Of a stretch of DNA of 64,000 nucleotides, positions 1 through 17,572 are shown piece after piece; positions within the stretch are counted from its first letter, which is position 1; each line of letters starts with the position of its first letter. The DNA is from Candidatus Limnocylindrales bacterium (lineage in GTDB: Bacteria > Chloroflexota > Limnocylindria > Limnocylindrales > CSP1-4), in assembly GCA_036274475.1 (NCBI GenBank), contig DASUFO010000035.1, positions 6,655 to 70,654 on the forward strand, given 5' to 3'. The position numbers and the translations under genes were made by a program. The notes beneath the pieces were generated by a model. That model made no database searches. It had not been told where the DNA came from and worked only from the letters and a program-made list of their open reading frames with translations.

Positions 1-383
1 TCGGTCGCGATCGCGTTGCCCATGATGTCGAGCGTGGGCCCGCTCCACTTGAAGGGGATGACCCCGGCGAGGTTCCAGGTCGTGATCTCCTCGCCCGTCG
101 ACGCCAGTGCGCTGATCGCCATCGTCGAGGGGATCACCTTGATCGCCTGCATCTGGAGCCACATCGCCAGCCACTGCGAGTTCGAATCGACGGGCCGCGA
201 GAGTCGCAGGTTCGTGTACTTGATCGGGCCGAGGAGCTTGTGCGTGAAGAGGTTGACCCCGCCCTCCTTGTACTCCTTGATGTCGTACTCGAAGCCGAGG
301 CCCTCGATCTTCGTCCAGACGCCGAGCGGCAGCACGCCGTCGATCGTGCAGCGGTAGACGATGCTCAGGGCCGGGTCGCTCAT
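1..383 (-). CDS. CIS tube-family protein (second tube, Afp5-like position). Only the N-terminal 127 codons are in the window; the gene runs off the left edge.
   Basis: Not in the ORF track because it is truncated. Reverse-strand ATG at 383..381 is preceded by AGGAG. Translation: MSDPALSIVYRCTIDGVLPLGVWTKIEGLGFEYDIKEYKEGGVNLFTHKLLGPIKYTNLRLSRPV... This shows the conserved phage tail tube (T4 gp19-like) signature: EGL..E..v.EYkEGG ... y.NL.L.R. Confidence 0.75.
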   Translation of the reverse strand, partial: MSDPALSIVYRCTIDGVLPLGVWTKIEGLGFEYDIKEYKEGGVNLFTHKLLGPIKYTNLRLSRPVDSNSQWLAMWLQMQAIKVIPSTMAISALASTGEEITTWNLAGVIPFKWSGPTLDIMGNAIAT

Positions 384-392
384 TCGTCGCTC

Positions 393-2369: not shown

Positions 2370-2524
2370 GCCTCCTCGGACAGCCGCTTGTTGATCCGGC
2401 CGATCTCGTCAACGAAGCGCAGCCGGAGCGGATGCTCGAGGTCGAGAATCGTGTCCATCGGCCAGTGGAAGTGATAGGCGACGTACGCGACCTCTTCGAA
2501 CAGTCGATCCGTCGCGTACGTCAC
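2366..2524 (-). CDS. Small conserved CIS-associated protein, 52 aa (DUF6760-like; name from memory).
   Basis: Below the ORF-track length cutoff. GTG at 2524..2522 overlaps the upstream TGA (GTGA), and its own TGA (2368..2366) overlaps the next GTG. Translation: VTYATDRLFEEVAYVAYHFHWPMDTILDLEHPLRLRFVDEIGRINKRLSEEA. It is not low-complexity and looks helical. Confidence 0.6.
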   Translation of the reverse strand: MTYATDRLFEEVAYVAYHFHWPMDTILDLEHPLRLRFVDEIGRINKRLSEEA

Positions 2525-3015
2525 GATTCCCCCAGGCGCTGCTCACCCGCCACGTCCACTGTGAACCCGTGGTTGCAGGCCGGACAGGTCACGGACGCCT
2601 GGGTATGGCCCTCCTGGTTGATCCGTCGGTACAGGTCCTGGAGGAACGCGAGGTCCGACGCGAACAGGCCCTCGATGACCCCGGTGTGGACCTGCGGCAC
2701 GCTGCCGAGCCGGGTGACGACCCGTGACAGCAGGAGGATCGTCAGGTACGCCTCGTTCTCGCGGACCCGTGGATCGCGCTGCGGAATGATCTCGTCCCGG
2801 GCGGTGGCGAGGCGCATCACGCCCTCGCGGTGGACGGCGCCGGAGCCGTCGACGTAGCCGCGTGGCAGGACAAACGCGTACTCCGTGTGGAGCCCGTCCG
2901 CTCCGGCCGTCGGGACGGCGCCGGCGAGCCCGGCCGATCCGATCGCCGGGAGCCCCGGCCCGAGGCCGGCGGCCCCGGGCATGCTCAGTCCGTCGGGCCG
3001 CGTCGCGATCGTCAT
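2521..3015 (-). CDS. Phage tail assembly chaperone-like protein (Afp6 / gpE-gpG position).
   Basis: 164 aa. ATG at 3015 lies 7 nt after the tube stop. The N-terminus is Gly/Ala-rich. The core reads VMRLATARDEIIPQRDP...AYLTILLLSRVVTRLGS...LFASDLAFLQDLYRRIN, resembling the gpE/gpG-type chaperone pattern. C-terminal CPAC. The position between the tube gene and the putative tape measure supports the call. Confidence 0.55.
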   Translation of the reverse strand: MTIATRPDGLSMPGAAGLGPGLPAIGSAGLAGAVPTAGADGLHTEYAFVLPRGYVDGSGAVHREGVMRLATARDEIIPQRDPRVRENEAYLTILLLSRVVTRLGSVPQVHTGVIEGLFASDLAFLQDLYRRINQEGHTQASVTCPACNHGFTVDVAGEQRLGES

Positions 3016-3022
3016 CGGCCGC

Positions 3023-3457
3023 CTAGCCCTTCGCCAGCGTCTCGCACGACAGCGTGGCTTCCTCGATCTGGACCCCGCTGGCGGTCGCGCCGCCCTCCGA
3101 CAGGCTCAGCTTCGAGACCATCGCGTTCGTGAAGTTGTAGCGGACGACTTCCTCGCCGACCGTGTTCATGAGGATCGCCGAGCCGTTGCGGCGGTCCGGC
3201 GTGCCCTGCATGACGGCCAGGTGCCAGTCCCAGAGCTCCGTCGCGCCGGTGAGGCCGCGCTTCAGCGTGATCGTCGGCGTCTTCGGCTTGCCCGGCAACT
3301 TGCCGATCGTGATCTTGCCCTGTTCGTTCACGAACGGGTTGTCGACGATCTCGACCTCGCTGGCGACGCCGGAGACCGACGTGAAGTTCGCCACGACGCC
3401 CATGCCGTCGATGTCGAGCAGTACGTTGCCTTGCAGCAGGGGATCGGTTGTCGGCAC
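3023..3457 (-). CDS. CIS tail tube protein (T4 gp19-like / Afp1-Pvc1-like).
   Basis: 144 aa. GTG start with AAGGGAG about 7 nt upstream. Sequence: MPTTDPLLQGNVLLDIDGMGVVANFTSVSGVASEVEIVDN...ITLKRGLTGATELWDWH..., typical tube-family sequence. Confidence 0.85.
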   Translation of the reverse strand: MPTTDPLLQGNVLLDIDGMGVVANFTSVSGVASEVEIVDNPFVNEQGKITIGKLPGKPKTPTITLKRGLTGATELWDWHLAVMQGTPDRRNGSAILMNTVGEEVVRYNFTNAMVSKLSLSEGGATASGVQIEEATLSCETLAKG

Positions 3458-3537
3458 TGATGTCTCCCTTCGACCGTGCGGTCACTTGCCTGCGGTGCGG
3501 GCGGCGCCGGGTGGGGCCACGGCGCCGCCGCCGGGGA

Positions 3538-5064
3538 CTACTCCTCGACCGTTGCGCCGCCCGAGAACTGGGCGATGCGGAAGACGACGAACTCGGCTGG
3601 CTTGACCGGCGCGATGCCGATGTCGACGACGAGCTGGCCGGCGTCGCGGGACTCCGGCGGGTTGTTCTCCTCGTCGCACTTCACGAAGAACGCCTGGTCG
3701 GGCGTCGCGCCGAAGAGCGCGCCGTCGCGCCAGACGCGGAGCAGGAACGCGTTGACGGTCCGCTTCACGCGGCCCCAGAGGCGCATGTCGTTCGGCTCGA
3801 ACACCACCCACTGAGTGCCCTCGAAGATCGACTCCTCGACGAAGTTGAACAGCCGCCGGACGTTCAGGTACCGCCAGGCCGGATCGCTGGACAGCGTTCG
3901 TGCGCCCCAGACCCGGATGCCGCGGCCGGGGAACGCCCGGATGCAGTTGATCCCAGAGGGATTCAGTTGGTCGTGCTCGGCCTTGGTGATGTTCAGCTCG
4001 AGCGAGATCGCGCCCCGGATCACCTCGTTGGCCGGCGCCTTGTGGACGCCGCGGGTGTCGTCGCTCCGGGCCCAGATGCCGGCCATGTGGCCGCTCGGCG
4101 GGACGTGCGTCGCCTGGCCCGACAGTGGATCGAAGACCTTGATCCACGGCCAGTAGAGCGTCGCGTACTTGCTGTCGTAGCCGGCCTTGTCGACCCGCCA
4201 CTCCTTGATCTGCTGAGCGTTGAGACCGGGCGGCGCGTCGAGGATCGCGACGCGGTCGCCCATCAGCTCGCAGTGGGCGATCATCGCGAGCTGGACGGCC
4301 TGCAGGCCCTCGAGGTCGATGTTGCCCGCCTGGTAGACGGCCATGAGATCCGGGACGCTGAGCATCGTGATCTCGTCGACCGCCTCGAGCCCGGCGAACC
4401 CGGTCCGGTCGGCGCTGTTGCCGACGTAGTCGTCGGGGGTCACGCGGACCGGGACGCTCGTTCCGCCGCCACTGAGCGAGACGGAGCCGGTCGCGGGTAC
4501 GCGCTCGGCGACCGCCGCGCTGCCGACTTCCTCGATCGCGATGAGCTTGGACTCGGCCTTCACGACCGTGACGACGTTCTGCTTGCCCTTGCCGGTGGTG
4601 AGGTTGTCGAACGTCTCGACCGGCCGGCCGCCCTGGTTCACCGTGATCTTGAAGGTGTTCTCGGCGGTCTCGGATGACGGGCCGATGTCGACGGTGATGT
4701 CGTTCCCGCCGGGGCCGGCCTCCAGAGCCGAGACCCGGTACGTCGGGCTGTCCTTCTCCTTGGCGCTCGTCAGCTGGCCGGTCGCGGTCGGCATCGCGCC
4801 GTCAGCGCCGATGCGGACGATGTACGCAGCGCCGCCGCCGTTCAGGAAGTAGCCGTAGACGGCGTGGGCGAGATACGAGCCCTCGATGAAGTCACCGAAC
4901 GTCTGGGTGAACTGGCTCCAGTTCGTGACGAGCGTCGGCGTGTTCGCGGGTCCGCGCGCGGCGAGCCCGACGAACGCGGCTACGGCCGTTCCGACGCCCT
5001 CGATCGGACGCGAACCAGCCTCTACCTCCTCGATGTAGACGCCTGGGGACAGGTAGTTCGGCAT
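3538..5064 (-). CDS. Contractile tail sheath protein.
   Basis: The track ORF 3538..5547 is over-extended. The internal ATG at 5064..5062 gives MPNYLSPGVYIEEVEAGSRPIEGVGTAVAAFVGLA..., the canonical sheath N-terminus. The C-terminus ...IGIAPVKPAEFVVFRIAQF is also sheath-like. 508 aa. Confidence 0.9.
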   Translation of the reverse strand: MPNYLSPGVYIEEVEAGSRPIEGVGTAVAAFVGLAARGPANTPTLVTNWSQFTQTFGDFIEGSYLAHAVYGYFLNGGGAAYIVRIGADGAMPTATGQLTSAKEKDSPTYRVSALEAGPGGNDITVDIGPSSETAENTFKITVNQGGRPVETFDNLTTGKGKQNVVTVVKAESKLIAIEEVGSAAVAERVPATGSVSLSGGGTSVPVRVTPDDYVGNSADRTGFAGLEAVDEITMLSVPDLMAVYQAGNIDLEGLQAVQLAMIAHCELMGDRVAILDAPPGLNAQQIKEWRVDKAGYDSKYATLYWPWIKVFDPLSGQATHVPPSGHMAGIWARSDDTRGVHKAPANEVIRGAISLELNITKAEHDQLNPSGINCIRAFPGRGIRVWGARTLSSDPAWRYLNVRRLFNFVEESIFEGTQWVVFEPNDMRLWGRVKRTVNAFLLRVWRDGALFGATPDQAFFVKCDEENNPPESRDAGQLVVDIGIAPVKPAEFVVFRIAQFSGGATVEE

Positions 5065-5250
5065 GCGGGGCCCCTTCGCTGCGGAGGACAACCGGATACC
5101 GCCGACGCTCCCACCGCGCGCGGTCCCGGACAAGGACCGACCGGTCACGCGCCGGGGCCGGGATGTTGCCCGAAGGGGCGATCGGGCCTGCCCCGACGGC
5201 TGCCCGTCGGCGGCTGGTCGGCGCCGCCCATCGATTGGACGATCGCGCGG
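5065..5250. promoter_or_regulatory. Divergent intergenic (promoter) region between the sheath arm and the cap/ATPase arm.
   Basis: 186 nt between the two start codons. It contains perfect dyads CGGTCC-N7-GGACCG (5121-5139) and CCGACGG-N4-CCGTCGG (5193-5210). No -35/-10 hexamers are recognisable by eye. Confidence 0.4.
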
Positions 5251-5979
5251 ATGATCCATGAAGTCGACCAGCTGCTCGAGAAGCTGGTGAAGAAGGACGC
5301 GCTCAACGGCTCGTCCGTCGAGCTCGTGTTCGACGCGCCGACCAAGGACTGGGTCGCCCGACGGAGCGGCCCCGCCGTCGACCTGTACCTCTACGACATC
5401 CGCGAGGATCTCGAGCGGCGGGTGCCGGCCTGGGAGGACAAGAAGGACGCCGCCGGCGAGCGGACGACGGATCGCCGCCTCCCGCCCCGGCGCTACCGTC
5501 TCGCGTACCTCGTGACCGCGTGGACCCAGCGTCCGGAGGACGAGCACCGCCTGCTGTCGGCGCTCCTCGGCTGCTTCATCCGGAACGCCATGCTCAAGCC
5601 CGACGAACTCGAGGGAGCGCTCGCCGAGCCCGACCTGCCGATCTACATCGACGTCGCCCAGCCGCCGTCGCAGGACCGCTCGCTCGCGGACGTCTGGTCG
5701 GCGCTCGGCGGCGAGCTGAAGCCGTCGCTCGACGTGATCGTGACGGCGCCGATGGTCGTCTCCCGCAGCGCGCCGTACGGACCGCCGGTCCTCATCGGCC
5801 CGTCGCTCGGGATCGCAGCCGTGGGCGGGCCCAACGAAATCATCGAGGCGACGTCACGGGGCAAGCCCAGGCGGACGAACCGGCGGCTCGAGCCGCTGCC
5901 CGAAGAGACCGTCCCGAAACACGCGAAGGACGACGACCCGGGCCTGAGGCTCCGCGTTCGCGGCCTGCGCGCGGGCTGA
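5251..5979 (+). CDS. DUF4255 (Pvc16/Afp16-like) tail terminator/cap protein.
   Basis: The ATG at 5251 lies inside track ORF 4864..5979. Sequence: MIHEVDQLLEKLVKKDALNGSSVELVFDAPTKDWVARRSGPAVDLYLYDIREDLERR..., the typical DUF4255 N-domain motif (vdLyLYdi.E...R). Confidence 0.85.
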   Translation: MIHEVDQLLEKLVKKDALNGSSVELVFDAPTKDWVARRSGPAVDLYLYDIREDLERRVPAWEDKKDAAGERTTDRRLPPRRYRLAYLVTAWTQRPEDEHRLLSALLGCFIRNAMLKPDELEGALAEPDLPIYIDVAQPPSQDRSLADVWSALGGELKPSLDVIVTAPMVVSRSAPYGPPVLIGPSLGIAAVGGPNEIIEATSRGKPRRTNRRLEPLPEETVPKHAKDDDPGLRLRVRGLRAG

Positions 5980-5991
5980 CGGCGGGCCGGC

Positions 5992-8175
5992 ATGGCGGCG
6001 GCCAAGGCGCCCACGGCTCGATCTCAGACGGACGCAGGGCCGGCGAGGGACGGCGTTGCGCCTGCCCGCTCAGCCAGTGCGCCGGCGTCCTCCTCGGCGT
6101 CGTCGTCGGCCGAGGCGTCGCTCGCCTATCTGTTCGCCAGGCTGGAGATCGTCGAGGCGCGCGTCCGGGCTGCGGTCGATCGGCGCCGCGCCGACGACGT
6201 GGACCCGACCGATCGGTTCCGCGGCCTCTACATCTCCGATGCCCAGGTCGACGGGCTGCTCGCCGGCGCCACCGGGCCGTGGCTTCCGGACGAGGTCGAC
6301 GCCGCGACCACGGCGGCGCTCGCCTCGATCGAGGCCAACGCTGCGGCCGCCGAGCGGACCGGGGCGGATCTCCGCCTGCGACGCCTCGCGCGGTCGTTCG
6401 GCCTCGACGCATACGACGTCGAGCTGCTGCTGATCGCGCTCGCCCCGGACCTCGAGCCGCGCTTCGAACGGCTCTACGGCTATCTCCACGACGACGTCTC
6501 GCGGCGTCGAGCGAGCGCCGGTCTCGCGCTCGAGCTGTGCGGCTCGGGAGCTAGTCCCGGCACGGCTCCCGGCCGGGCGCGCCTGGGGCCCTCGGCGCCA
6601 CTCGTCGCGCGCGGCCTGATCGTCGTCGAAGACCCGGAGCGACCGTTCCTGACGCGCTCGCTGCGGGTCCCGGACCGAGTTGCCGCCCACCTGCTCGGCG
6701 ACGACACTCCGGATCCCGCGATCGAGCAGCTCCTCGTGGATTCGGTGGCGGCAGAGATCGGCGACGTCGACATGCTCGTTCGGGCGCTCGCGTCAGAGGT
6801 CCCGCTCGTCTACATCCGGGAGCGGCCGGGCGCGTCCGGCGGGTCGCTGGCCCGCGCGGCCCTCGCCCGCGTCGGCCGGCCGGTCGTCGAGCTCGACCTG
6901 AACCGGCTCGCGCCGACCGACGAGCCACGGACGATCGCCGCCGCCGCGGCGCGCGAGGCCGGGCTGCTCGGCGCGGGCCTCGTCGTCGGACCGCTGGAAC
7001 CGCTCGTCGACCAGGGCCCGGCGGCCGTGCGGGTGTTCGCGGAGTCGCGTCCCGGCATCGTGCTCATCGGCAATCGCGCGTGGGACCCGGCGTGGTCCCT
7101 CGAACCGCCGCTCCTGCTCGACGCGCCCGTGGCGACCGTCAAGGAACGCCACGAGATGTGGCTGGCGTCGCTCAACGGCGCGACGCCGACCGGCTTCGAC
7201 CCGGCGATCGTGACGCTCGCGTTCCGCCTCGCTCCGGGCCAGATCCGGCGCGCCGCCCAGGCTGCCCATCGGGCGTCCGATGCCGCGGACCGGCGGATGA
7301 CCGTCGACGACATTTCGGCCGGGGCGCGTGCTCAGAACGCGGCCGGCCTGGAGCGGCTCGCCCGGCGCATCGAACCGATGGTCGAGTGGGCGGACCTGGT
7401 CCTGCCACCGGTCGTCGACGCCCAGCTCCACGAGCTGACCGCGCGGGCCCGACATCGCGAGACTGTCGTCGGCGCGTGGGGAATGGGCCAGCGATCGCGC
7501 TCCCGGGGCATCACCGCGCTGTTCGCCGGCGACTCCGGCACGGGCAAGACGATGTCAGCCGAGGTCCTCGCCCATGACCTCGACTTCGACCTGTACGTGA
7601 TCGATCTCTCGACCGTCGTCGACAAGTACATCGGCGAGACCGAGAAGAACCTCGACCGGATCTTCACGGAGGCGGACCGGGTCAACGGCGTCCTCCTCTT
7701 CGACGAGGCCGATGCGCTGTTCGGCAAGCGGAGCGAGGTGAAGGACGCCCGCGATCGATATGCGAACGTGGAGGTCGCGTACCTCCTCCAGCGGATGGAG
7801 TCGTTCGACGGGGTGGCAATCCTCACGACGAATCTCCGGACGAACGTCGACGAGGCGTTCACCCGGCGGCTCGACGCGATCGTCGACTTCCCGATGCCCG
7901 AGGAGGAGGACCGCCGCCGGCTGTGGATGGCGAACCTGCCGGCGTCGCTGCCCCGCGACGGCGACCTCGACCTCGACTTCCTCGCCCGCCAGTTCCGCGT
8001 GTCGGGCGGCAACATCAAGAACATCTGCGTCACCGCGGCCTATCTCGCCGCCGCGGATGGCCGGCGCGTGTCGATGGCGGACCTGATCCGCGGCACGGAT
8101 CGCGAATACCGCAAGCTCGGCCGGCTCACGGTCGAGGCCGAGTTCGGCCCGTACTTCGAGCTGGTCTCGACATGA
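5992..8175 (+). CDS. CIS-associated AAA+ ATPase (Afp15/Pvc15-like).
   Basis: 727 aa. Walker A GDSGTGKT, Walker B VLLFDEADALF, and the sensor region ILTTNLRTNVDEAFTRRLD in the C-terminal third. It has the long N-terminal extension characteristic of eCIS ATPases. It starts 12 nt after the DUF4255 stop. Confidence 0.9.
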   Translation: MAAAKAPTARSQTDAGPARDGVAPARSASAPASSSASSSAEASLAYLFARLEIVEARVRAAVDRRRADDVDPTDRFRGLYISDAQVDGLLAGATGPWLPDEVDAATTAALASIEANAAAAERTGADLRLRRLARSFGLDAYDVELLLIALAPDLEPRFERLYGYLHDDVSRRRASAGLALELCGSGASPGTAPGRARLGPSAPLVARGLIVVEDPERPFLTRSLRVPDRVAAHLLGDDTPDPAIEQLLVDSVAAEIGDVDMLVRALASEVPLVYIRERPGASGGSLARAALARVGRPVVELDLNRLAPTDEPRTIAAAAAREAGLLGAGLVVGPLEPLVDQGPAAVRVFAESRPGIVLIGNRAWDPAWSLEPPLLLDAPVATVKERHEMWLASLNGATPTGFDPAIVTLAFRLAPGQIRRAAQAAHRASDAADRRMTVDDISAGARAQNAAGLERLARRIEPMVEWADLVLPPVVDAQLHELTARARHRETVVGAWGMGQRSRSRGITALFAGDSGTGKTMSAEVLAHDLDFDLYVIDLSTVVDKYIGETEKNLDRIFTEADRVNGVLLFDEADALFGKRSEVKDARDRYANVEVAYLLQRMESFDGVAILTTNLRTNVDEAFTRRLDAIVDFPMPEEEDRRRLWMANLPASLPRDGDLDLDFLARQFRVSGGNIKNICVTAAYLAAADGRRVSMADLIRGTDREYRKLGRLTVEAEFGPYFELVST

Positions 8176-8286
8176 GCCCGCCTCGCCGATGCCCGATCGG
8201 GCAGATGTGGCTGCGCGGCGTACCGGATGCCTTGTCCGGCCGCCCCCGAAGGGTGATGCTGGGACGACCACGTCGGAGGACGACCG

Positions 8287-8964
8287 ATGCATGAGTTCGA
8301 AACCGGGGAACGAACCCACCGGCGCAATCCGCCGGCCGCGCCCGGGACGGGGACGCCGGGTCCCGCGCGACCGGATGCCTCGCGAACTGGCGATCAGCGG
8401 ATGCCGCTGAGCCCTGCGTCGATCCTCGGGTTGCAGCGGACGGCCGGCAACGCGTCCGTCGTCCAGCTGCTCGGCGCCGACGAGGAACAGACGTCGCCGG
8501 TTCACGACGTCGTCGGCAAGGGCGGCGGCGCGCCCCTCGACGACGGAGTCCGGAGCGACATGGAGGGTCGGTTCGGCCAGAGCTTCTCGGATGTTCGGGT
8601 GCACACCGACGCGAAGGCCTCCGAATCGGCCGAGTCGGTCGGGGCGAATGCCTACACCGTCGGCAACGACATCGTCTTCCGGTCCGGGCACTTCGACGCA
8701 TCATCGCCCGTCGGCCAGCGGACGCTCGCCCACGAGCTGACCCACGTCGTCCAGCAGCGAAGCGGTCCGGTCGACGGCTCGCCCGCGCCGGGTGGGATCT
8801 CGCTGAGCAACCCGACGGATCGGTTCGAGCAGGCCGCCGACCGACACGCGGACCAGGTGATGTCGGGCGCGGCACCGGCCGGTTTGGAGGAATCCGAGGA
8901 CAGCATCCAGCGCGTCGTCCAGCGCGACGCCGCGGAGGACGAGCTGGAGGACGAGGCCGTCTAG
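8287..8964 (+). CDS. DUF4157 zincin-like (HExxH) protein, a putative CIS payload or payload adaptor.
   Basis: 225 aa. GGAGGA lies 6 nt upstream of the ATG. Sequence: PLDDGVRSDMEGRFGQSFSDVRVHTD...ANAYTVGNDIVFRSG...LAHELTHVVQQ (an HExxH motif) is the DUF4157 signature. It sits immediately downstream of the ATPase. Confidence 0.85.
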   Translation: MHEFETGERTHRRNPPAAPGTGTPGPARPDASRTGDQRMPLSPASILGLQRTAGNASVVQLLGADEEQTSPVHDVVGKGGGAPLDDGVRSDMEGRFGQSFSDVRVHTDAKASESAESVGANAYTVGNDIVFRSGHFDASSPVGQRTLAHELTHVVQQRSGPVDGSPAPGGISLSNPTDRFEQAADRHADQVMSGAAPAGLEESEDSIQRVVQRDAAEDELEDEAV

Positions 8965-9120
8965 GCCCGCGTCTCTGGTCGTGGCCGGCTCGACCGCCCG
9001 CTAGCCCGCCCGCCGTGGGCTCTCATCCCTGCATCGGACGATCTGGCGAGGTGGTTCAGGCGTTTGGGCTCGGATTCGTGGGGTGTCAGCGACCGCCGGA
9101 AACGGACGGCGCGCTCCGTT

Positions 9121-9768
9121 CTAGATGAGCCCCTCGCGAATCGCGTATGCGACGGCGTGCGCCCGGTTGCGGAGCTCCAGCCGCGACGTGATGTCGTGGA
9201 TGATGTTCTTGACCGTCCGCTCCGAGTAGAAGAGCTGCCGCCCCACCTCGGCCGTGTCGTGGCCCTGGGCGAGCAGTCGGAGCACGGCGGTCTCGCGCTC
9301 CGTGAGGCCCGAGAACGTAAGGCCGCGCGGCGTCAGCACCTGGCGCTGGAGCTGGCCGACCTGGCGAAGCAGCCGCCCGAGGAGATCTGGCGACAGGGTG
9401 CCCTCGCCGGCCGCCGCGGATCGAATCGCCGCGGCCATGTTGCCGGCCGTCGCCTCGGAGCGGCGAATCACGCCGGACGCTCCGGCCTCGACCGCGGCCA
9501 GCAGGTCGCGATCGTCGACGCGCGCCACGAGCAACACGACCCGGTTCACGCCGCGCCCGCGAAGCGCCCGGAATTCGGCGACCACGTCGTCGCTCATCGC
9601 ATCGGCGACGACGAGCGCGACCGAGTCGTCGGTGGCGTCCTCGAGGCCCACGATCGTGAAGCCGTGCACCCGTCGCAGCTGGCTCGTGATCCCTGCCCGG
9701 GACAGCGGATCCGCCGCGCAGACGACGACCGGGATCTGCTCCTTGAACAGGATCGTTTCGGCAACCAT
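9121..9768 (-). CDS. LuxR/NarL-family response-regulator-like transcription factor with a degenerate receiver domain (orphan).
   Basis: The track ORF is over-extended. ATG at 9768 has GGAGGG upstream. C-terminal HTH: LTERETAVLRLLAQGHDTAEVGRQLFYSERTVKNIIHDITSRLELRNRAHAV. The receiver has CAAD instead of the DD pocket, retains an Asp in VVADAM, has Ala where T/S is expected, and reads GVIRR instead of the conserved Lys. No kinase gene is adjacent. Confidence 0.8.
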   Translation of the reverse strand: MVAETILFKEQIPVVVCAADPLSRAGITSQLRRVHGFTIVGLEDATDDSVALVVADAMSDDVVAEFRALRGRGVNRVVLLVARVDDRDLLAAVEAGASGVIRRSEATAGNMAAAIRSAAAGEGTLSPDLLGRLLRQVGQLQRQVLTPRGLTFSGLTERETAVLRLLAQGHDTAEVGRQLFYSERTVKNIIHDITSRLELRNRAHAVAYAIREGLI

Positions 9769-9905: not shown

Positions 9906-9925
9906 CGGGCACGGAACTGTGCCCG
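9906..9925. promoter_or_regulatory. 20-bp perfect dyad CGGGCAC-N6-GTGCCCG, a candidate operator.
   Basis: Read directly from the sequence. It lies in the 234-nt divergent region between the LuxR-type gene (start 9768) and the envelope operon (start 10003, or alternatively 9919). Confidence 0.35.
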
Positions 9926-10002: not shown

Positions 10003-11274
10003 GTGGGTGCATCCGTCACGCTGACCGCCCCGGCGGTCGCCGTCGAGCCCGGCGCCGAGGCAACCGTCGAGTTCAAGCTGCGCAACACGGGCGCGGTCGT
10101 CGACGAGTTCACGCTCGGGATCCTCGGTGACGCCGCGGGCTGGACGGCGGTCGTTCCGCCGACGATCTCGCTCTTCCCCGGCGCCGAGGAGACCGGCCGG
10201 ATCGTGTTCCGGCCGCCGCGCAGCGCGCAGGTCCCGGCAGGGCCGATGCCGTTCGCGCTTCATGCCGTCTCGCGCGAGGATGCGGCGGGGTCCGCGGTCG
10301 AGGAGGGGACGGTCACCGTCGGCGCGTTCAACGACCCCTTCGCCGAGCTCGTTCCGCGGACGTCCCGGGGCAGCCGGTCAGCGAGTCACGACCTCGCCGT
10401 CGACAACCGCGGCAACGTCCGCCTGAATGCCGAGGTCGAGGCCGCCGACGTCGACCGTCAGCTCGAGTTCGACGTCAACCCGCCGGGTGTTGTCGTCGAG
10501 CCCGGGATGGCGCAGTTCGCCAAGGTCCGGGTCAAGCCGGTCAAACGCTTCTGGCGTGGCTCGCCGAAGACGCGGCCGTTCCAGCTCGTCGTCCGATCGG
10601 AGGGCGCGCCCCCGGTGACGCTCGACGGGGCGCTGCTCCAGGAGGCGATCCTGCCGCCCTGGTTCGGGCGGGCACTCATCGCGCTGGTCGCGCTGCTGAT
10701 CGCGCTGGTCATCCTCTGGCTGTTCGTGTTGAAGCCGTCGATCCAGAGCGCCGCCTCGGAGGCCGTCGCCTCGCCGCTTGGCGACCTCCGGAGCGATGTC
10801 AACGAGGCCCTCGAGAACGCCGGATTGCCCACCATGGGTCCGGGCGAGCCGAGCGCGGCCCCGCCGACGACACCGCCGGCGAGCGGCGGCCCCGGCGGCA
10901 GCGGTGCCCCGGGCGGTTCCGGGGCGCCGGCGACGCCAGCGGCACCGACGCCCGGCGGGCCGTTCATCCCGGGGCTCGGCAACCCGGTCGACGGACGCCT
11001 TGCCCAGGGCTCCGGATCGGTCAAGCCGGCCGGGACGCTGTTCCTCACCGACATCGTGTTCTCGAACCCGAACGCTCGCGAAGGAGCCATCTCCCTGCTC
11101 CGCGACGGCAACCCGCTCATCGAGGAGCGGCTCGAGAACTTCCGGAGCCTCGACTACCACTGGGTCACGCCGATCGTCATCGAGGCCGGCCACGAGCTGG
11201 CCCTGTCGCTGACCTGCACCGCGGGTGCCGAATGCGATCCGTCCGTCCTCTATTCCGGCTACCTCCGGCCGTAG
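10003..11274 (+). CDS. Bitopic membrane protein: N-terminal tandem beta-sandwich-like region, one TM segment, Pro/Gly linker, ~110-aa C-terminal domain.
   Basis: The start is uncertain: GTG at 10003 is preferred, GTG at 9919 is the track start. There is no signal peptide. The N-terminal region reads VTLTAPAVAVEPGAEATVEFKLRNTGAVVDEFTL... (CARDB/NEW3-like). The TM segment is WFGRALIALVALLIALVILWLFVL. The linker is TPPASGGPGGSGAPGGSGAP. The C-terminal domain ends CTAGAECDPSVLYSGYLRP. Confidence 0.7.
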   Translation: MGASVTLTAPAVAVEPGAEATVEFKLRNTGAVVDEFTLGILGDAAGWTAVVPPTISLFPGAEETGRIVFRPPRSAQVPAGPMPFALHAVSREDAAGSAVEEGTVTVGAFNDPFAELVPRTSRGSRSASHDLAVDNRGNVRLNAEVEAADVDRQLEFDVNPPGVVVEPGMAQFAKVRVKPVKRFWRGSPKTRPFQLVVRSEGAPPVTLDGALLQEAILPPWFGRALIALVALLIALVILWLFVLKPSIQSAASEAVASPLGDLRSDVNEALENAGLPTMGPGEPSAAPPTTPPASGGPGGSGAPGGSGAPATPAAPTPGGPFIPGLGNPVDGRLAQGSGSVKPAGTLFLTDIVFSNPNAREGAISLLRDGNPLIEERLENFRSLDYHWVTPIVIEAGHELALSLTCTAGAECDPSVLYSGYLRP

Positions 11275-13472
11275 TCCGCGCCGCTCGCCGCTCCTCGCCG
11301 CGACGTCAGCGACCGGCCGGGGTCGCCGTCGCGCTCGGGCTCGTCCTCGTGGGAGTTGGCTCGGCGTCCGGCGGTCACCCGATGGAACCGCCCGGCGATG
11401 CCAGCGGCTCCGCTGTCGTCGGGCCCGCGATTGCCCGCGCGAATCCGCTCACGCCCGATACGGCCGCTGCGGCGCCACCCGGATCGAGCGGCCTCGTCTC
11501 GCCGGCGCGGAACGGCGGCTTCGCGAACGGTCCCTCGAGCGTGCCGTCGATCTCCGAGAACGGCCGCTGGGTCGCGTTCACGTCGCTCGCGAACAACCTC
11601 GTCCAGGGCGATTCGAACGATACCCAGGATGTCTTCCTCCGCGACCGAAGCGACGGCACGACCGTCCGGCTGCCGCTGCCCGGCGGTGGTGCGGTTCCGG
11701 CCGGAGGCACTGCGTCGGAGCCCGCGATCTCCGCCGACGGGTCGGTCGTCGCCTTCACCTACACGCCGCCCGCGCCTGCGCCACCGCCATCGGCGACGCC
11801 GACACCGACACCGGCGATCATCCTGCTCGCGGTCGCCCCGTGCTCCGGCTCGCTCGTGATCGCCTGGCACCGGGATACCGGGGCGTCCGAGATCGCCTCG
11901 ATCACGGCGGACGACACGATCGCCTGCCGGAGCAGCGGGCCGTCCGTGTCGGGCGACGGGACCCGCATCGCGTTCGTCCAGCTCGTCAATCTTGGCGCCG
12001 CGGGCGTCGCGTTCAGCCAGGTGTTCGTTCGCGACGTGGCCGCCGGCACGACGACGTACGTCTCGGGCAACCCCGGCGCGGTCGGCAACGCCAACAGCCG
12101 GAACCCGGCGATTTCCGGGGACGGTCGCGTGGTCGCCTTTGATTCCGACGCGAGCAACCTCGTCGCGGGCGACGCGGCGGGCGCGAGCGACGTCTTCGCC
12201 CGGCGCCTGCCGGACGGCCCCATCGAGCTGATCAGCCGTCGCCAGGGCGGCAGCGCGAACGGGCCCAGCCTCGCCCCATCCGTGTCCGCCGACGGTTCCG
12301 TGATCGCGTTCGAGTCCAACGCGACGAATCTCGCGCCCGGTGCCGCGGCCGCTCGCAACGTCTACGTCCGTGATCGGTCAGCCGGGGTGACGAGCCTCGC
12401 TTCGGTCGACTCCGGGGGCACGGCGGCCGCGGGCGACAGTGGTCAGGCGTCGATCAGCGGCGACGGGTCGATCGTCGCGTTCGCCTCGGTCGCCGCCGAC
12501 CTCGCCCTGTTCGGCCCGCCGCTGACGGTCTCCGGACCGAACGCCGACCTGGCCGCGGTCGCTCCTCCCAAACCCACCGAGGTCTACGCCCACGACCTCG
12601 TCACCGGCCACACGATCCGTGTGTCCGAGGCGCGGGGCGGAGGGGCGGCCGGCGGCGTGAATCTCCAGCCGTCGGTCGGCGGCAACGGTCGGTACGTTGC
12701 GTTCACTTCCACGTCGCCGAACATCGTCCGTGGCGACGGCAACCAGGTCGCGGACGTGTTCGTGCGCGATTTCCCGGCCGCGCCGGCGATCGCGCCCGAT
12801 CCCCTCGAATTCGGCCCATGGGCGCTCGGCATCGTGGGCCCGCCACTGCCGGCGACCGTGTCGAACGCCGGCTGGGCGCCGGTCACGATCACTGCGGCGG
12901 ACGTCGGCGGATCGGCCGCCGGCGACTTCTCGATCGCCGTCAATGACTGCCAGGATCGCGTCCTCAGGTTCAGCCAGACGTGCCAGGTGTCGCTGACGTT
13001 CGCGGCCGGCAAGGCCGGCGAGCGCAACGCGACGCTCGAGGTCGAGCACTCCGGCCCGAAGCCGCCCGCGGTCGTCGCGATCCACGGCGTCGGCATCGAG
13101 ATTCCGGGCGTCACGCCGGGCGACACGACGCTCGAGATCAAGCCGCCGGTCGGGCGGCCGGGGATCGTCGTCATCGTCACGGGTTCCGGGCTCCCGGGAA
13201 ACACCGACCTGACGCTCGCCTGGAGCCGCGGCATCACGCCCAAGCTGCCACCGATCCGGACCGACGTTCGGGGCAACTTCCGGGTCCAGGTGCTCGTGTT
13301 CCACAACGACGTCATCGGTCCCCGTGACCTGGTCGCCACGACCGTCGGCCCCGTCGCGTTCCCGCCGATCAGTGCGCGGTTCCTCGTCGTCGAGCCGCCG
13401 AGCGAGCCGCCGCGTTTCGAGCCGGGTGATCCGTCGGTGACCCGCCCGCAGTCGATCATCTTCCGCCGCTAG
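11232..13472 (+). CDS. Secreted seven-bladed PD40/TolB-like beta-propeller protein with C-terminal choice-of-anchor-D / Ig-like domains.
   Basis: Signal-like N-terminus: RPAGVAVALGLVLVGVGSASG. Seven repeats of P(S/A)(I/V)S.(D/N)G..(V/I)AF.S.A.NLV.GD.N...DVF.RD. Then LEFGPWALGIVGPPLPATVSNAGWAPVTITAADVGG...FSIAVNDC (choice-of-anchor-D-like). It overlaps the previous gene by 43 nt. Confidence 0.8.
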   Translation: MRSVRPLFRLPPAVVRAARRSSPRRQRPAGVAVALGLVLVGVGSASGGHPMEPPGDASGSAVVGPAIARANPLTPDTAAAAPPGSSGLVSPARNGGFANGPSSVPSISENGRWVAFTSLANNLVQGDSNDTQDVFLRDRSDGTTVRLPLPGGGAVPAGGTASEPAISADGSVVAFTYTPPAPAPPPSATPTPTPAIILLAVAPCSGSLVIAWHRDTGASEIASITADDTIACRSSGPSVSGDGTRIAFVQLVNLGAAGVAFSQVFVRDVAAGTTTYVSGNPGAVGNANSRNPAISGDGRVVAFDSDASNLVAGDAAGASDVFARRLPDGPIELISRRQGGSANGPSLAPSVSADGSVIAFESNATNLAPGAAAARNVYVRDRSAGVTSLASVDSGGTAAAGDSGQASISGDGSIVAFASVAADLALFGPPLTVSGPNADLAAVAPPKPTEVYAHDLVTGHTIRVSEARGGGAAGGVNLQPSVGGNGRYVAFTSTSPNIVRGDGNQVADVFVRDFPAAPAIAPDPLEFGPWALGIVGPPLPATVSNAGWAPVTITAADVGGSAAGDFSIAVNDCQDRVLRFSQTCQVSLTFAAGKAGERNATLEVEHSGPKPPAVVAIHGVGIEIPGVTPGDTTLEIKPPVGRPGIVVIVTGSGLPGNTDLTLAWSRGITPKLPPIRTDVRGNFRVQVLVFHNDVIGPRDLVATTVGPVAFPPISARFLVVEPPSEPPRFEPGDPSVTRPQSIIFRR

Positions 13473-13474
13473 CG

Positions 13475-14575
13475 ATGGCGTCCGAGACGGTCATCTGTCG
13501 CCGCTGCGGCGTCGCGAACCCCGCCGGCGATCAGTTCTGCGGATCGTGCGGCGCGTTTCTCGAGTGGGAATCGGACGCGGCGCCGGAGGCGGATACGGCC
13601 GCCGGCCCGCCACCCGGCGGTCCGCTCCCGGCACAGGATCCCGTCACGGAGGACTGGAGCGGCCGCACGTTCCCCTCGCCGCCGATCACGGCAGAGCCGC
13701 CACCGCCGCCACCGCCGCCACCGCCGGTCCCGGCGCCGGATGCGCCGCAGCCCATGCCGGGCTTCACGGTCTGCCCGACGTGCGGCTCGGGCAACCCGCC
13801 GGGCCGGACGTTCTGCCATTCCTGCGGCAACGTCCTCGCGAAGGCACCGACGAGCGCGGCCGGGACGGGTCCCAAGCAGACACACGACCGCGAGCCCCGG
13901 CGGATCCCCGGCTGGCTGCCGCTCGCGATCGCCGCCGGGCTCGTCGTCGGCGTCGTCGTCATCCTCGTGACGGTTGTCCTCAAGCCCAGCGCGCCGCCGT
14001 CGGTCGCCCTCCCGAGCGCGACGCTCACGCCGACGCTCGAAGTCCCGCCCTCGATCACCGTCCCGCCGCCAGCGTCCGGCGGCGCAACGACCGCCGCCGG
14101 TTCAAGTGCGCCGGGCTCGACCGTCCAGCTGACGCTGGCAGGGGCGAGCGCGTCCTCGGTTGCCGCCGACACGCCCGACATGGCCGCTGCCAACGTGATC
14201 GACGGCCGCCTCGACACGCGCTGGCAGGAGGCCGTCGGCTCGGCGCCGGGCGAGTGGGTCGAGGTCACGTTCGCGACGGCCCGGCTCGACTACCTCGTCG
14301 TGTACTCCGGCTTCCAGCTGAGCCACGACTCGTTCGTCGCGACGAAGCGGCCACAGAACGTCGTCGTCACGGTGAACGGCGGCTCTCCGGTGGGCTTCGT
14401 CCTCCAGGACTCGGAGCTCCCGCAGCGCATCGATATCGCCGACACTCCCGGCGCGACCGTCGTCCGCATCCAGACCGCGTCGACGTACCCGGCCGCCGCG
14501 AGCGCTTACCCGGGCAGCCCGATCGATGCCGCGACGATCAGCGAGATCCGTGCGTTCGGGGCGGCCGGCGGGTGA
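13475..14575 (+). CDS. Double zinc-ribbon, poly-Pro, TM, discoidin (F5/8 type C-like) domain protein.
   Basis: Two zinc ribbons: CRRCGVANPAGDQFCGSCG and CPTCGSGNPPGRTFCHSCG. A run of ten Pro residues. TM segment WLPLAIAAGLVVGVVVILVTVVL. C-terminal NVIDGRLDTRWQEAVGSAPGEWVEVTF...ISEIRAF is discoidin-like. It starts 2 nt after the previous stop. Confidence 0.75.
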   Translation: MASETVICRRCGVANPAGDQFCGSCGAFLEWESDAAPEADTAAGPPPGGPLPAQDPVTEDWSGRTFPSPPITAEPPPPPPPPPPVPAPDAPQPMPGFTVCPTCGSGNPPGRTFCHSCGNVLAKAPTSAAGTGPKQTHDREPRRIPGWLPLAIAAGLVVGVVVILVTVVLKPSAPPSVALPSATLTPTLEVPPSITVPPPASGGATTAAGSSAPGSTVQLTLAGASASSVAADTPDMAAANVIDGRLDTRWQEAVGSAPGEWVEVTFATARLDYLVVYSGFQLSHDSFVATKRPQNVVVTVNGGSPVGFVLQDSELPQRIDIADTPGATVVRIQTASTYPAAASAYPGSPIDAATISEIRAFGAAGG

Positions 14576-14690
14576 GGATCGCTGACCGCTCGCACGTCGC
14601 TACCCCGTTCCCGCCGCTCGAGCTCGCGTCGTATCCTGCCGATCTGGGCACGCCGGCGAGGGTCGATGCCGACGGGCACGAGGGCAGCGA

Positions 14691-15671
14691 ATGAGCCTGG
14701 TCGGGGTTTGGTTCGCCAAGTTCGCCTCAGCCATGGGTGGAGCCCTGCCCGCGGGCGCGATCGTCGGCGGCGGCCTCGTCATCGGCATCCTCGTTGGCGC
14801 CGCTACCGGTGGCGGGCTCGGCGGCGGTGGCGGCGCTCCGGCACCCAGCATCCAGACGAGCGACGTCCTGCCGTGTCCGGACATGGGCCCGCCGGTTCTC
14901 TCGGTGAAGAGCGGCCAGCACGTCTGGATCACCGGCAAGACGGCCGACGGCAAGTACCTCCGGGTTCACGTCGGCGGGCCTGGCGTGCAGGAGGGCTTCG
15001 TCCCAGCCGCGGCCTACTCACTCCTGGGCTCGCTCGACGACGTCCCGGTTGTCAGCTGTACTCAGCAGGCGCTGATCGCATTCGCACCGTCGCCCGGGGA
15101 ATCCGAGACGACGACTGGCAGTTTCGAGCCCTCGGCGTCGCCAAGCCCGTCGCTGTCGCCGCCTCCCAGCGCGACCGCGAGCCCCGCGCCATCGTCGACG
15201 CCTCGAGCGACCGCGACGCCGCGCGGGACACCCAGGGCCACGCCCCGCGTGACGCCTGCGCCCACGAAGGTGCCGACGCCAAAGCCCACCCCGAAACCCA
15301 CGCCCAAGCCGACCCCGACGCCGGATACGACCAAGCCAAGTGTTGGCGCCCCCGATGCGAATCCGGGCCAGATCGCGTCGTGCAGCGGCGCCCAGTCCTC
15401 ATCGATCAGTACGGAAGCCTTCGACAATCCGGGAGGATCCGGGATCAGCAGGGTCACGCTGAAAGTCTTCGACGCCAGCGGCACGCAGCTGTTCACAAAA
15501 CGGATGACGACCGCCGGCTCCGGCCTGTGGGAGACCACGCTGTCTGTCGGCGATCCATTCCCGGGCGGCCAGAGCACGTACCCGATCCGGGCAACCGCGG
15601 TCGACAAGGCCGGGAACAGCGCCACGTCGAGCGCAGGCCGGATCACCGTGATCAAGTCTGACTTCTGCTGA
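14691..15671 (+). CDS. Membrane-anchored protein with an SH3-like domain, Pro/Thr linker and C-terminal Ig-like domain.
   Basis: N-terminal TM segment (GGALPAGAIVGGGLVIGILVGAATGG). SH3-like stretch: SVKSGQHVWITGKTADGKYLRVHVGGPGVQEGFVP. Linker: TPKPTPKPTPKPTPTP. Ig-like C-terminus: ISRVTLKVFDASG...YPIRATAVDKAGN. Confidence 0.65.
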   Translation: MSLVGVWFAKFASAMGGALPAGAIVGGGLVIGILVGAATGGGLGGGGGAPAPSIQTSDVLPCPDMGPPVLSVKSGQHVWITGKTADGKYLRVHVGGPGVQEGFVPAAAYSLLGSLDDVPVVSCTQQALIAFAPSPGESETTTGSFEPSASPSPSLSPPPSATASPAPSSTPRATATPRGTPRATPRVTPAPTKVPTPKPTPKPTPKPTPTPDTTKPSVGAPDANPGQIASCSGAQSSSISTEAFDNPGGSGISRVTLKVFDASGTQLFTKRMTTAGSGLWETTLSVGDPFPGGQSTYPIRATAVDKAGNSATSSAGRITVIKSDFC

Positions 15672-17572
15672 TGGCCAAGCTGAGCGCCATCCTCCCCAAG
15701 CTCGGCGTCTTCCTCGTCGCGACGATCGTCGGCGCCTCGATCGCGTACGTCGTGGCGGCCGCGGCCAACCGGCCGCAGCTCGAGCCGACCGCCGGAACCG
15801 CCCCCGAGTACGTCCTCACCGCCGAAAACGGAGCGGGGCCGGGCCAGATCGCCGCGTTCGACCTGATCGACGCCCAACAGGACCCGACGTTGATCACCGG
15901 GATCTCGGACGACGACCTCGGCGCCGCGTCCGAGGCGCTCCTCGACGACTCCCCGCCGCCCGGGACGACGCCGCTGGGCTTCCCGCGCGTCCCGCTCGTG
16001 AGCCAGTTCGACGGCGGCCCGTTCCAGAACGCCAACTGCACGCTCGCGTCGGGCGCGATGCTGGCACGACTCGCGTTCGGGATCGTCACGAGCGGTTCGA
16101 TCCTGCGGACGCTCCAGTTCGACCAGGACGGCGGCACGGACCTCCACGACCTCAACACCGCGGTATTCCGGGGCTATGGCGTGAAGTTCAACCTCGGCGC
16201 GTTGCTGCCGGACCAGATGATGGGGCTGAGCCTGAAGGGCTACGGGATCGTGATCCAGGGCAACACGAAGGCGCTCAACGCGAAGGTGCGGTTCGGCTCG
16301 TTCCAGGGACCCCATGCCGTCTACATCGACGGTGCCTGGGAGGGCGATGCCGACTCGCCGGCCGCGTACTGGGTGATCGACCCCCAGGGCCGCGGCAACT
16401 ACAACGGTGGCTGGTGGCCCGCCGACGAGGTCGAGAAGTTCGCCCGGTCGTTCAGCGGGTCCGATCGGATCGCGGCTGCCTGGGCGTTCCCGCCCGGTGG
16501 CGTGCCGCCCGAGGTCGTGCCACCGGACCTGCCGCCGCTGCCGGGGGGCGAGCCCGAGGACTCCCCGCCGCCCGCGGCGGCCTCGCCGACGCCGATCCCG
16601 AGCGGCGGCCTCGACGAGGGCGTCGAGCCCGGTGACGAGCCCGAGACGCCGCCGCCGGTCGTTGGCGACCCGCCGGTCCTCGAGCCGACGGAGGTCGGCG
16701 GCGTCGACGTCGACCCGGACCTGACGGTATGCCTCGTGGACCCGCCGCCGGACGGCTGTCCCGACGGAATCGAAGGCGTGTTCGACAAGGACCCACCGAT
16801 TCTTCAAATCGACTTCGGGCCTGACATCGAGGTGATCGGCGTCGATTCGAGCGCCTTCAACGTGGCCCTCGTCGCGTTCCGGATCGACCATCCCGCACCG
16901 GTCGACGTGAAGTACTGGCAGTCGGACGGTTCGCCGCCGGTGATCACCGGCGCCTCGTCAATCGCCGCGCTCGACATCGGCGGGCAGCCCGGCTTTGTCG
17001 CGCGCCTCGACGTCCTCGCCGGGACGGAGTACCACTTCCAGGTCGCCGCCGGCGACGGTCTGTTCGTGAGCACGAGCGACGTGGGCACGTTCACGACGGG
17101 CTCGGGCGTGAGCGCCTTCGAGGTCACGCTCGCGTCGAATGCCAGCCCGAAGTTCGGGACCGTCACCGGGTTCACGCCGTATCTTCAGCTCGCCCCGGAC
17201 AGCGTCGCGCCGCCGCTCATGAAGTTCACCGACGTGACGCCCGACATCTGCCTGATCGTCATCGACTTCGGCGGCGACGACTACTGCGAGACGAAGGAGC
17301 CACCGCCGGACGCCGCCTGCGTGAGTGCCCACGTCACGTACGAGCTGCAGGGCATCACCAACACGAGCGTCCTCGTGACCGCGTTCCCGACCGAGTCGGG
17401 CGTGTCCGACGGCGCGCCAACGGTCGATGGCATCCTCGAGGCGGAGGGTCCGGCCGACACCGGCGCGGTCACCGTCGGCTGCCTCGCATCCGGGCTCACG
17501 TACACGATCGCGCTCCAGGCGATCGGTCACGACGGCGGCATCCTCGCGAGCAAGCAGGTCGACGTGCCGTAG
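15671..17572 (+). CDS. Membrane-anchored protein with a C39-like (papain-fold) cysteine peptidase-like domain, Pro-rich linker and C-terminal beta-rich domains.
   Basis: Its ATG shares one nt with the previous TGA (TGATG). N-terminal TM segment: LGVFLVATIVGASIAYVVAAAA. Candidate catalytic residues: VSQFDGGPFQNANCTLASGAMLARL (Cys) and FQGPHAVYIDG (His), by motif resemblance only. Confidence 0.6.
   Translation: MAKLSAILPKLGVFLVATIVGASIAYVVAAAANRPQLEPTAGTAPEYVLTAENGAGPGQIAAFDLIDAQQDPTLITGISDDDLGAASEALLDDSPPPGTTPLGFPRVPLVSQFDGGPFQNANCTLASGAMLARLAFGIVTSGSILRTLQFDQDGGTDLHDLNTAVFRGYGVKFNLGALLPDQMMGLSLKGYGIVIQGNTKALNAKVRFGSFQGPHAVYIDGAWEGDADSPAAYWVIDPQGRGNYNGGWWPADEVEKFARSFSGSDRIAAAWAFPPGGVPPEVVPPDLPPLPGGEPEDSPPPAAASPTPIPSGGLDEGVEPGDEPETPPPVVGDPPVLEPTEVGGVDVDPDLTVCLVDPPPDGCPDGIEGVFDKDPPILQIDFGPDIEVIGVDSSAFNVALVAFRIDHPAPVDVKYWQSDGSPPVITGASSIAALDIGGQPGFVARLDVLAGTEYHFQVAAGDGLFVSTSDVGTFTTGSGVSAFEVTLASNASPKFGTVTGFTPYLQLAPDSVAPPLMKFTDVTPDICLIVIDFGGDDYCETKEPPPDAACVSAHVTYELQGITNTSVLVTAFPTESGVSDGAPTVDGILEAEGPADTGAVTVGCLASGLTYTIALQAIGHDGGILASKQVDVP

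Follow-up and report, generated by a model that had tools for sequence, protein, structure and literature searches.

Five co-directional genes, here termed g1 to g5, likely form an accessory arm of a type IId (Streptomyces-like), probably cytoplasmic-acting contractile injection system (CIS) island. The genes lie in a stretch of 64,000 nucleotides (the window; GC content 71%) on contig C35 of a metagenome-assembled genome (MAG) of 3.6 Mb and 92 contigs. The host is an uncultured soil Chloroflexota bacterium, and related records give the lineage name Candidatus Limnocylindrales, phylum Chloroflexota. A first-pass annotation, made from the sequence, had reported gene junctions of -43, +2, +115 and -1 nt, and the open reading frames (ORFs) at 10003-17572 reproduce these values exactly. 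The domain architectures given there were broadly recovered for all five products by Pfam and NCBIfam scans, with a weak SH3 match in g4 and no family for g5. The accompanying claim of a composition unlike any described system is not borne out: g1 belongs to a published family of CIS effectors, and g3 shares the architecture of proteins encoded at the position of the Streptomyces firing factor CisA. What we describe is a known kind of system, a type IId CIS, extended by a lineage-specific pair (g4-g5) and supplied with additional CisA-type and Sco4256-type proteins.

The link between the cluster and the CIS is visible within the genus of the host. Ten of 41 genomes carry an orthologous sheath gene, and a g1 orthologue is present in eight of these ten and in none of the other 31. 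The island reads, in the genomes G035, G012 and G004, g1' (a g1 paralogue) / zinc ribbon-transmembrane (TM)-PD40 protein / SARP-STAND regulator / zinc ribbon-TM-discoidin protein / baseplate to sheath / AAA / DUF4157 / LuxR / g1-g5 / ndh, G004 being exceptional in that g1-g5 are deleted. Four genomes of this genus have no CIS, and in them 0.4-1.2 kb separates the island's left-hand neighbour gene from ndh, which flanks g5 on the right; the block from g1' to g5 has therefore been gained or lost as one unit of ~40 kb. The adjacency of g1-g5 to the CIS is not accidental. The first-pass annotation had raised co-occurrence with CIS genes, which the counts bear out, and had left it undecided whether the CIS neighbourhood was meaningful; the link is real, and the cluster lies inside the insertion/deletion block of the CIS. 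A second, divergent sheath gene (40-50% identity) occurs in G003:C67, G015:C4:22560-25253, G020:C72, G021:C280 and G029:C3; this indicates another CIS or a prophage-tail type, unlinked to the five-gene cluster.

The first gene, g1, connects the cluster to characterized proteins. We place it in the Sco4256-4258 CIS effector family, via a Streptomyces RICIN-domain protein and published descriptions, because its residues 1-255 are 37% identical (BLASTP, 2e-54, aligned from Met1) to a CIS-encoded protein of Streptomyces sp. NBC_01426 that has the N-domain/TM/RICIN architecture published for Sco4257 and Sco4258 (PMC10066040). In its CIS cluster, the gene for the NBC_01426 protein is flanked by those for DUF4157 and AAA. 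Sco4256, Sco4257 and Sco4258 share their N-terminus and one TM segment and are toxic in E. coli; in S. coelicolor, they are needed for filling of the tube lumen and for CIS-dependent cell death, and their mutants phenocopy CIS mutants (PMC10066040). Their N-domain is PapD-like, and homologues have been noted in Chloroflexi (Vladimirov et al., 2023; PMC10020575). The features of this family recur in g1, namely the shared N-domain, a PapD-chaperone-like fold, one TM segment with a variable domain C-terminal to it, and location in a type IId CIS cluster.

Domain scans of g1 detect two Ig-like beta-sandwiches (Cep192_D3, 30 bits; a weak choice_anch_T match), a TM segment and a small C-terminal domain. 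The layout comprises PapD/ASH-like sandwiches at residues 1-212, the TM segment at ~219-245, a Pro/Gly linker and a beta-sandwich at 326-422 with the invariant cysteines C405 and C411. The two N-terminal beta-sandwiches are also found in the AlphaFold2 (AF2) model (mean pLDDT 82), in which a helix at 219-273 holds the hydrophobic stretch, and Foldseek matches the model to CEP192 SPD-2, HYDIN-type and FimC/PapD folds (E 1e-10 to 1e-6). The sandwiches at 1-212 are predicted to be cytoplasmic and the sandwich at 326-422 to be external. Mean column identity over 28 orthologues is 73%. All 28 aligned orthologues begin with MGASVTL and some have no space for a longer N-terminus, which supports the GTG start at 10003; a longer form from GTG 9919, with a Tat-like RRRR signal, was rejected on the same grounds, as some open frames preclude the extension. 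Outside the lineage, tblastn matches (E 1e-27 to 1e-48) were obtained against 20 or more Streptomycetaceae plasmids, and a profile search returned 5893 representative relatives, 1010 of them below 1e-30, with the named members being Actinomycetota proteins. Homologues of g1 lie beside CIS genes at six actinobacterial loci (Flindersiella, an Actinomycetota MAG, pSCATT, a Kitasatospora plasmid and two Streptomyces plasmids), and at four of these (Flindersiella, the Actinomycetota MAG, pSCATT and a Streptomyces plasmid) a LuxR gene is next to the homologue or divergent from it. We also considered g1 as the counterpart of CisA and dropped this assignment in favour of the Sco4256-4258 family; the CisA-type architecture is found in g3 and in the zinc ribbon-discoidin protein encoded next to the baseplate genes.

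The g3 product contains two zinc ribbons (Pfam, E 5e-11), a proline run, a TM segment and an NADase_discoid domain (NF047619, 69.8 bits, cut-off 38). It has no signal peptide, and basic residues precede the TM segment; the zinc ribbons are predicted to be cytoplasmic and the discoidin (glycan-binding) domain to be external. Proteins combining zinc ribbon, TM segment and NADase-type discoidin domain are the products of genes just downstream of those for the baseplate, that is, at the CisA position, on pSCATT, on the Kitasatospora plasmid, on a Streptomyces plasmid and in this genome. NF047619 matches those of pSCATT (54.5 bits), Kitasatospora (64.6 bits) and this genome (43.3 bits), and the homologue on the Streptomyces plasmid is of the NADase_transloc/F5_F8_type_C kind. 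The pSCATT protein is probably AEW99545.1, which Vladimirov et al. list as a Sco4242 homologue; this identification was made by position, the accession itself being unmatched. For Sco4242, a Cys-rich Zn-binding region has been described, with a TM segment next and a carbohydrate-related C-terminal domain of ~150 amino acids after it (PMC10020575); as CisA, it is a membrane protein that CIS-Sc needs in order to fire (Casu et al., 2025; PMC12237407). That eLife paper likened the C-terminal domain of CisA to solute-binding domains, not to discoidin (PMC12237407). With g3, CisA shares a Cys-rich Zn-binding region before one TM segment, and the N-terminus of g3 would likewise be cytoplasmic. The gene lies on the other arm of the island and not at the CisA position, its product lacks the PW(W/Y)RR motif common to the CisA-position homologues, and it is ~25-35% identical to them in patches only. 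We regard g3 as a divergent paralogue of the CisA-position zinc ribbon-discoidin protein and not as the positional homologue.

The g2 product carries PD40 repeats (59.5 bits), a choice_anch_D domain (47 bits, cut-off 45) and, at the C-terminus, a domain of ~120 amino acids that is conserved. Its translation shows seven S-x-S-x-DG-x-x-VAF repeats, and we regard it as a putative PD40 beta-propeller protein that would be secreted or anchored. The C-terminal domain (residues ~625-730) is 38-45% identical to the C-termini of PD40/CLIPPER/PKD proteins from three actinobacterial CIS loci. Such g2-like proteins adjoin the LuxR/g1 pair in Flindersiella, on pSCATT and in the Actinomycetota MAG, where the protein is of the PKD type, and a PD40+DUF11 protein occupies the equivalent place on a Streptomyces plasmid. 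A PD40 gene beside the LuxR/Sco4256-like pair is also the order in Streptomyces NBC_01324. An identification of g2 as TolB of the Tol-Pal system was rejected, with a TIGR02800 score of 18 bits against a cut-off of 343; the common feature is the PD40 repeat type only. The regulator gene divergent from g1 had been called an orphan, which needs revision: in S. coelicolor, transcription of the sheath operon depends on SCO4263, a LuxR-family regulator encoded close to the CIS genes (PMC2000904), and the regulator in the window matches SCO4263 in family and in CIS adjacency, features that carry this likeness in place of sequence. In Flindersiella endophytica (L081:1385-2881, minus strand), the neighbour of the CIS ATPase is a 498-amino-acid protein in which a g1-type N-domain is joined to an N-terminal zinc ribbon; another g1-like gene comes next, and the locus also encodes a 1422-amino-acid PD40/CLIPPER protein with a g2-like C-terminus.

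Conservation of the cluster was assessed from g5 outwards, using one genome per species. The scan found 53 g5 loci, nearly all labelled Chloroflexota/Limnocylindrales and one contig labelled Verrucomicrobiia, and synteny counts were restricted to the 43 loci with at least 6.8 kb of upstream flank. All genomes are MAGs, many of them long-read assemblies with frameshifts. The genes g1, g2 and g3 lie upstream of g5 in 41 of the 43 loci, and conservation of the order g1-g2-g3-g4-g5 across related genomes, a point raised in the first-pass annotation, is thereby confirmed. In G035, G012, G023, G001, G021 and G020, all of the host's genus, g1, g2, g3 and g5 are colinear, with g4 sitting between g3 and g5 in same-genus relatives. 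The LuxR gene is divergent from the g1 homologue in 40 of the 43 Limnocylindrales loci. Median junctions over the loci are -43, +7, +72 and +1 nt, and the order is kept despite an amino-acid identity between orthologues of just 27-70%. Order and spacing are conserved far beyond chance expectation, and the view of a tight, operon-like cluster of single-pass or secreted envelope proteins is supported. The overlap of g1 and g2 (11232-11274 in the window, and the orthologous junctions) measures nearly always 43 nt or ~58-67 nt, mostly 61, and is unusually long and fixed for coupled genes.

We consider it probable that g1-g5 are co-transcribed from a promoter region shared with the divergent LuxR gene, whose product would control them. 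Terminator-like sites inside the cluster are not in excess (2 observed vs 2.2 expected), terminator and promoter scans being uninformative in DNA of 71% GC. The LuxR-g1 spacer contains a perfect dyad (9907-9924), a candidate operator. A GGGCA-N6-9-TGCCC dyad with up to two mismatches is found at a similar position in most of 41 orthologous LuxR-g1 spacers, mostly 70-115 nt from the start of the extracted spacer. In the 3.6 Mb genome the exact pattern occurs 27 times; C92 has no copy, and the first 26 kb of C35 has one. An operator shared across the island was considered and rejected, as the exact pattern does not recur in the parts of C35 and C92 that were examined and the sheath-AAA spacer holds a weak match with two mismatches. 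The spacer between the AAA and DUF4157 genes contains a perfect 14-bp palindrome, TGCCCGATCGGGCA (8190-8203 in the window), composed of the half-sites of the g1 dyad in inverted arrangement.

The features of the locus are collected in Table 1. Upstream of the cluster and on the same contig, CIS genes on the minus strand encode sheath, tube, a protein in the tape-measure slot, VgrG, PAAR, gp25, baseplate J and P2_I. C35 starts within the zinc-ribbon gene downstream of the baseplate genes, and the remainder of this gene lies on contig C92. The SARP/STAND regulator on C92 is 1021 amino acids long, with AAA_22, Trans_reg_C and BTAD domains, and g1', also on C92, resembles g1 in the N-domain and differs in the C-terminal domain. 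Both g1 and g3 have a paralogue at the opposite end of the island.

Table 1. Genes and sites of the five-gene cluster and the adjoining CIS island (window positions unless a contig is given).
Feature	Position	Strand	Evidence or remark
g1	10003-11274	+	ORF
g2	11232-13472	+	ORF
g3	13475-14575	+	ORF
g4	14691-15671	+	ORF
g5	15671-17572	+	ORF
LuxR/GerE-family regulator	9121-9768	-	GerE domain E 9.8e-14; ATG start 9768; divergent from g1
Dyad GGGCAC-N6-GTGCCC, perfect	9907-9924		LuxR-g1 intergenic region; candidate operator
Tube	3023-3457	-	Pfam match, adjacent CIS gene
Sheath	3538-5853	-	Pfam match, adjacent CIS gene
AAA ATPase	5992-8175	+	Pfam match; divergent from sheath
DUF4157/eCIS-core protein	8287-8964	+	Pfam match, adjacent CIS gene
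Zinc ribbon/TM/NADase-type discoidin protein, CisA position	C35:2-409 plus C92:3-1532		Second zinc ribbon, TM and discoidin on C92
Four-gene island end on C92	G000:C92 (L073) 3-7605		C-terminal part of discoidin protein, SARP/STAND regulator, zinc ribbon/TM/PD40 protein, g1'

The last two genes appear, from the homologues found, to be restricted to the Chloroflexota lineage Limnocylindrales. The g4 product has an N-terminal TM anchor, an SH3b-like domain bracketed by the invariant cysteines Cys62 and Cys123, a Pro/Thr linker and one or more Ig-like domains. Its Big domains are weak matches, and the protein is longer (~500 amino acids) in most relatives; among 16 orthologues, SH3_3 is detected in three (best E 7.6e-4) and Big_7/Big_3_2/Big_13 in four to six. 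In g5, an N-terminal TM anchor is followed by an alpha/beta domain (~100-280), a Pro-rich linker, which is disordered in the AF2 model, and three beta-sandwiches (386-631). About 186 full-length homologues were found; those with a named source are Limnocylindrales, and no Pfam domain is recorded in the 120 listed. A 641-amino-acid protein (L071:9218-11143, plus strand, Ca. Limnocylindrales contig DATFHO010000106.1) begins with a g3-like double zinc ribbon and TM segment and continues with a g5-type papain-like domain and a beta domain; its gene adjoins an MFS transporter gene, with no CIS genes within 10 kb upstream. This fusion implies that g5-type ectodomains and the zinc-ribbon module have been shuffled between the g3 and g5 families.

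It is plausible that g5 is a papain-like or C39-like cysteine hydrolase facing the wall. In 32 homologues with 41-70% identity to the query, residues Q112, C123, H215, D220 and D237 do not vary, and in the AF2 model (mean pLDDT 72) Cys123 opens a helix (123-136), His215 opens a strand, and strands carry the His and the Asp. A Cys at the N-terminus of a helix and a His at the start of a strand constitute the canonical geometry of the papain fold. This invariance, seen at Gln112, Cys123, His215 and Asp237, and this geometry speak against the alternative that the domain is a binding module, or uses its Cys and His otherwise, in a purely structural or sensory cluster. That alternative, which we regard as unlikely, draws on the database searches: no Pfam or NCBIfam model is matched above threshold, Peptidase_C39_2 (PF13529) gives a weak match (E 0.008, below the gathering threshold) in three of 12 homologue domains, a PDB profile search with the domain was empty, and permissive Pfam/NCBIfam scans of individual members gave nothing solid. 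Foldseek with the whole model returned FN3/Ig tandem matches only, from the C-terminal half, so the fold does not place the catalytic domain, and the model has low confidence around residues 114-121 and 141-170.

Several observations weigh against an accessory arm of the CIS or would suit an autonomous LuxR-controlled envelope operon for wall maintenance or sensing, which rides the island without a functional tie. G004 (C6:290001-304000, L076, ~8252-9286) carries a clean deletion of g1-g5, with the last 43 codons of g5 left between LuxR and ndh, and keeps an apparently intact CIS together with the DUF4157 and LuxR genes. In G065 (C4:480001-499000, L090), the CIS arm ends after LuxR-g1-g2 and is followed by adh; g3-g5 are absent there, and a g5 copy split in two frames lies on another contig (L063:10001-11888) in a housekeeping setting, beside urocanase, DAO and MFS genes. 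Together, the two variants demonstrate that g3-g5, and once all five genes, are dispensable for retention of the CIS; the conserved core is LuxR-g1-g2, and g3-g5 are optional. Matches to g4 and g5 were not found in the actinobacterial CIS loci, so that their link to the CIS is one of synteny alone. In addition, certain Streptomyces homologues of g1 sit outside CIS regions, zinc ribbon/TM/ectodomain proteins are common outside CIS loci too, the g5-type domain of L071 is fused to zinc ribbons outside a CIS context, and a search for RNA evidence found the sequence solely in soil DNA metagenomes. We nevertheless hold an autonomous operon to be quite improbable: g1, g2-like and g3-like proteins recur with a LuxR gene at CIS loci of another phylum, in differing gene orders, the cluster is present in none of the 31 CIS-lacking genomes of the genus, and mutants of Sco4256-4258 phenocopy CIS mutants in S. 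coelicolor (PMC10066040).

It is also conceivable, and in our view very unlikely, that the cluster encodes the apparatus by which an extracellular or cell-to-cell CIS is targeted and exits; g2-g5 would then open the wall of the producer or bind the surface of a target, in the roles of a lysis peptidase and of receptor binders resembling fibres, and would not serve intracellular firing. The glycan- or ligand-binding modules (discoidin, SH3b, Ig/FN3 and PD40) and a predicted hydrolase facing the wall could be read in this way, and Vladimirov et al. initially took Sco4242 for a fibre (PMC10020575). However, the proteins are membrane-anchored rather than baseplate-attached, g1 is unusually well conserved, unlike receptor binders in an arms race, and the nearest studied CIS, those of Streptomyces and Roseiflexus, are cytoplasmic and not released (PMC10066040, PMC12998442).

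For the accessory arm of a cytoplasmic CIS, we propose a mechanism by analogy with Streptomyces. Here, g1 would act as a Sco4256-4258-type protein, which in S. coelicolor serves tube-lumen filling and CIS-dependent death, and g3 as a second CisA-type copy that points its zinc ribbons toward the cytoplasmic CIS and its discoidin domain toward the wall. The products of g2, g4 and g5, predicted to be wholly extracytoplasmic, may act on the wall at the point of CIS docking and firing, by binding, sensing or cutting it. A trans-envelope role, as proposed at the outset from the sequence, is still the best reading of the cluster. One could go further and imagine that, in a monoderm-type bacterium, g1-g5 and their far-end paralogues build a dedicated station across the envelope at which a cytoplasmic CIS docks and fires, an idea to which we give only a small chance. 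In such a station, the baseplate or tube would be caught by zinc ribbons and PapD-like domains on the cytoplasmic side, the wall's condition would be sensed by the external PD40, discoidin and SH3b modules, and firing would be licensed when the anchored papain-like hydrolase cleaves the wall or the ectodomain of a partner. If true, this would be a functional analogue of the type VI secretion system membrane complex, assembled from unrelated parts.

It is still an open question by what route cytoplasmic CIS arrive at the membrane and what triggers them, and to our knowledge CisA is the sole known factor in Streptomyces. Proteins of CisA architecture exist in Chloroflexota, in three copies with differing ectodomains, and the trio of LuxR regulator, Sco4256-like protein and PD40 propeller recurs at type IId loci of two phyla. 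The g4 and g5 products, the latter with a likely catalytic Cys-His-Asp triad, are candidate CIS partners by synteny. The cluster offers concrete candidates for interaction tests, and the natural deletion variants G004 and G065 help to separate the core (LuxR, g1 and g2) from the optional g3-g5.

Compared with known systems, g1 resembles Sco4256-4258 (Casu et al., 2023, PMC10066040; PMC10020575) in its PapD-like N-domain, single TM helix and variable C-terminal domain, and in the place of its gene, next to a LuxR regulator on that side of a type IId CIS where the ATPase is encoded. It differs in that its C-terminal domain is a disulfide-bearing beta-sandwich of ~100 amino acids instead of a RICIN lectin, and in heading a five-gene cluster. 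Paralogues within one island, here g1 and g1', are also seen in Streptomyces and Roseiflexus. Both g3 and the baseplate-proximal zinc ribbon-discoidin protein are like CisA as published in that they are predicted to be bitopic, with a cytoplasmic Cys-rich Zn-binding region ahead of the TM segment and a putatively external, carbohydrate-related domain of ~130-150 amino acids; for g3, the likeness is one of architecture by published description, and the gene is not encoded at the CisA position. With C39-like and papain-fold hydrolases (PF13529), g5 shares the order Gln...Cys...His...Asp and the Cys at a helix N-terminus, and unlike C39 peptidases it has an N-terminal TM anchor, three trailing beta-sandwiches and no ABC transporter or bacteriocin context. 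The island as a whole is similar to the type IId clusters of Chloroflexota and Deinococcota, such as that of Roseiflexus (PMC12998442), in CIS lineage, phylum and the presence of Sco4256-like paralogues (PMC10020575, supplement). The study of the Roseiflexus type IId CIS (ISME J, 2026) found no close cisA homologue in that organism (PMC12998442). In contrast to Roseiflexus, the Limnocylindrales island encodes three zinc ribbon/TM proteins, two with a discoidin and one with a PD40 ectodomain, along with the g4-g5 pair.

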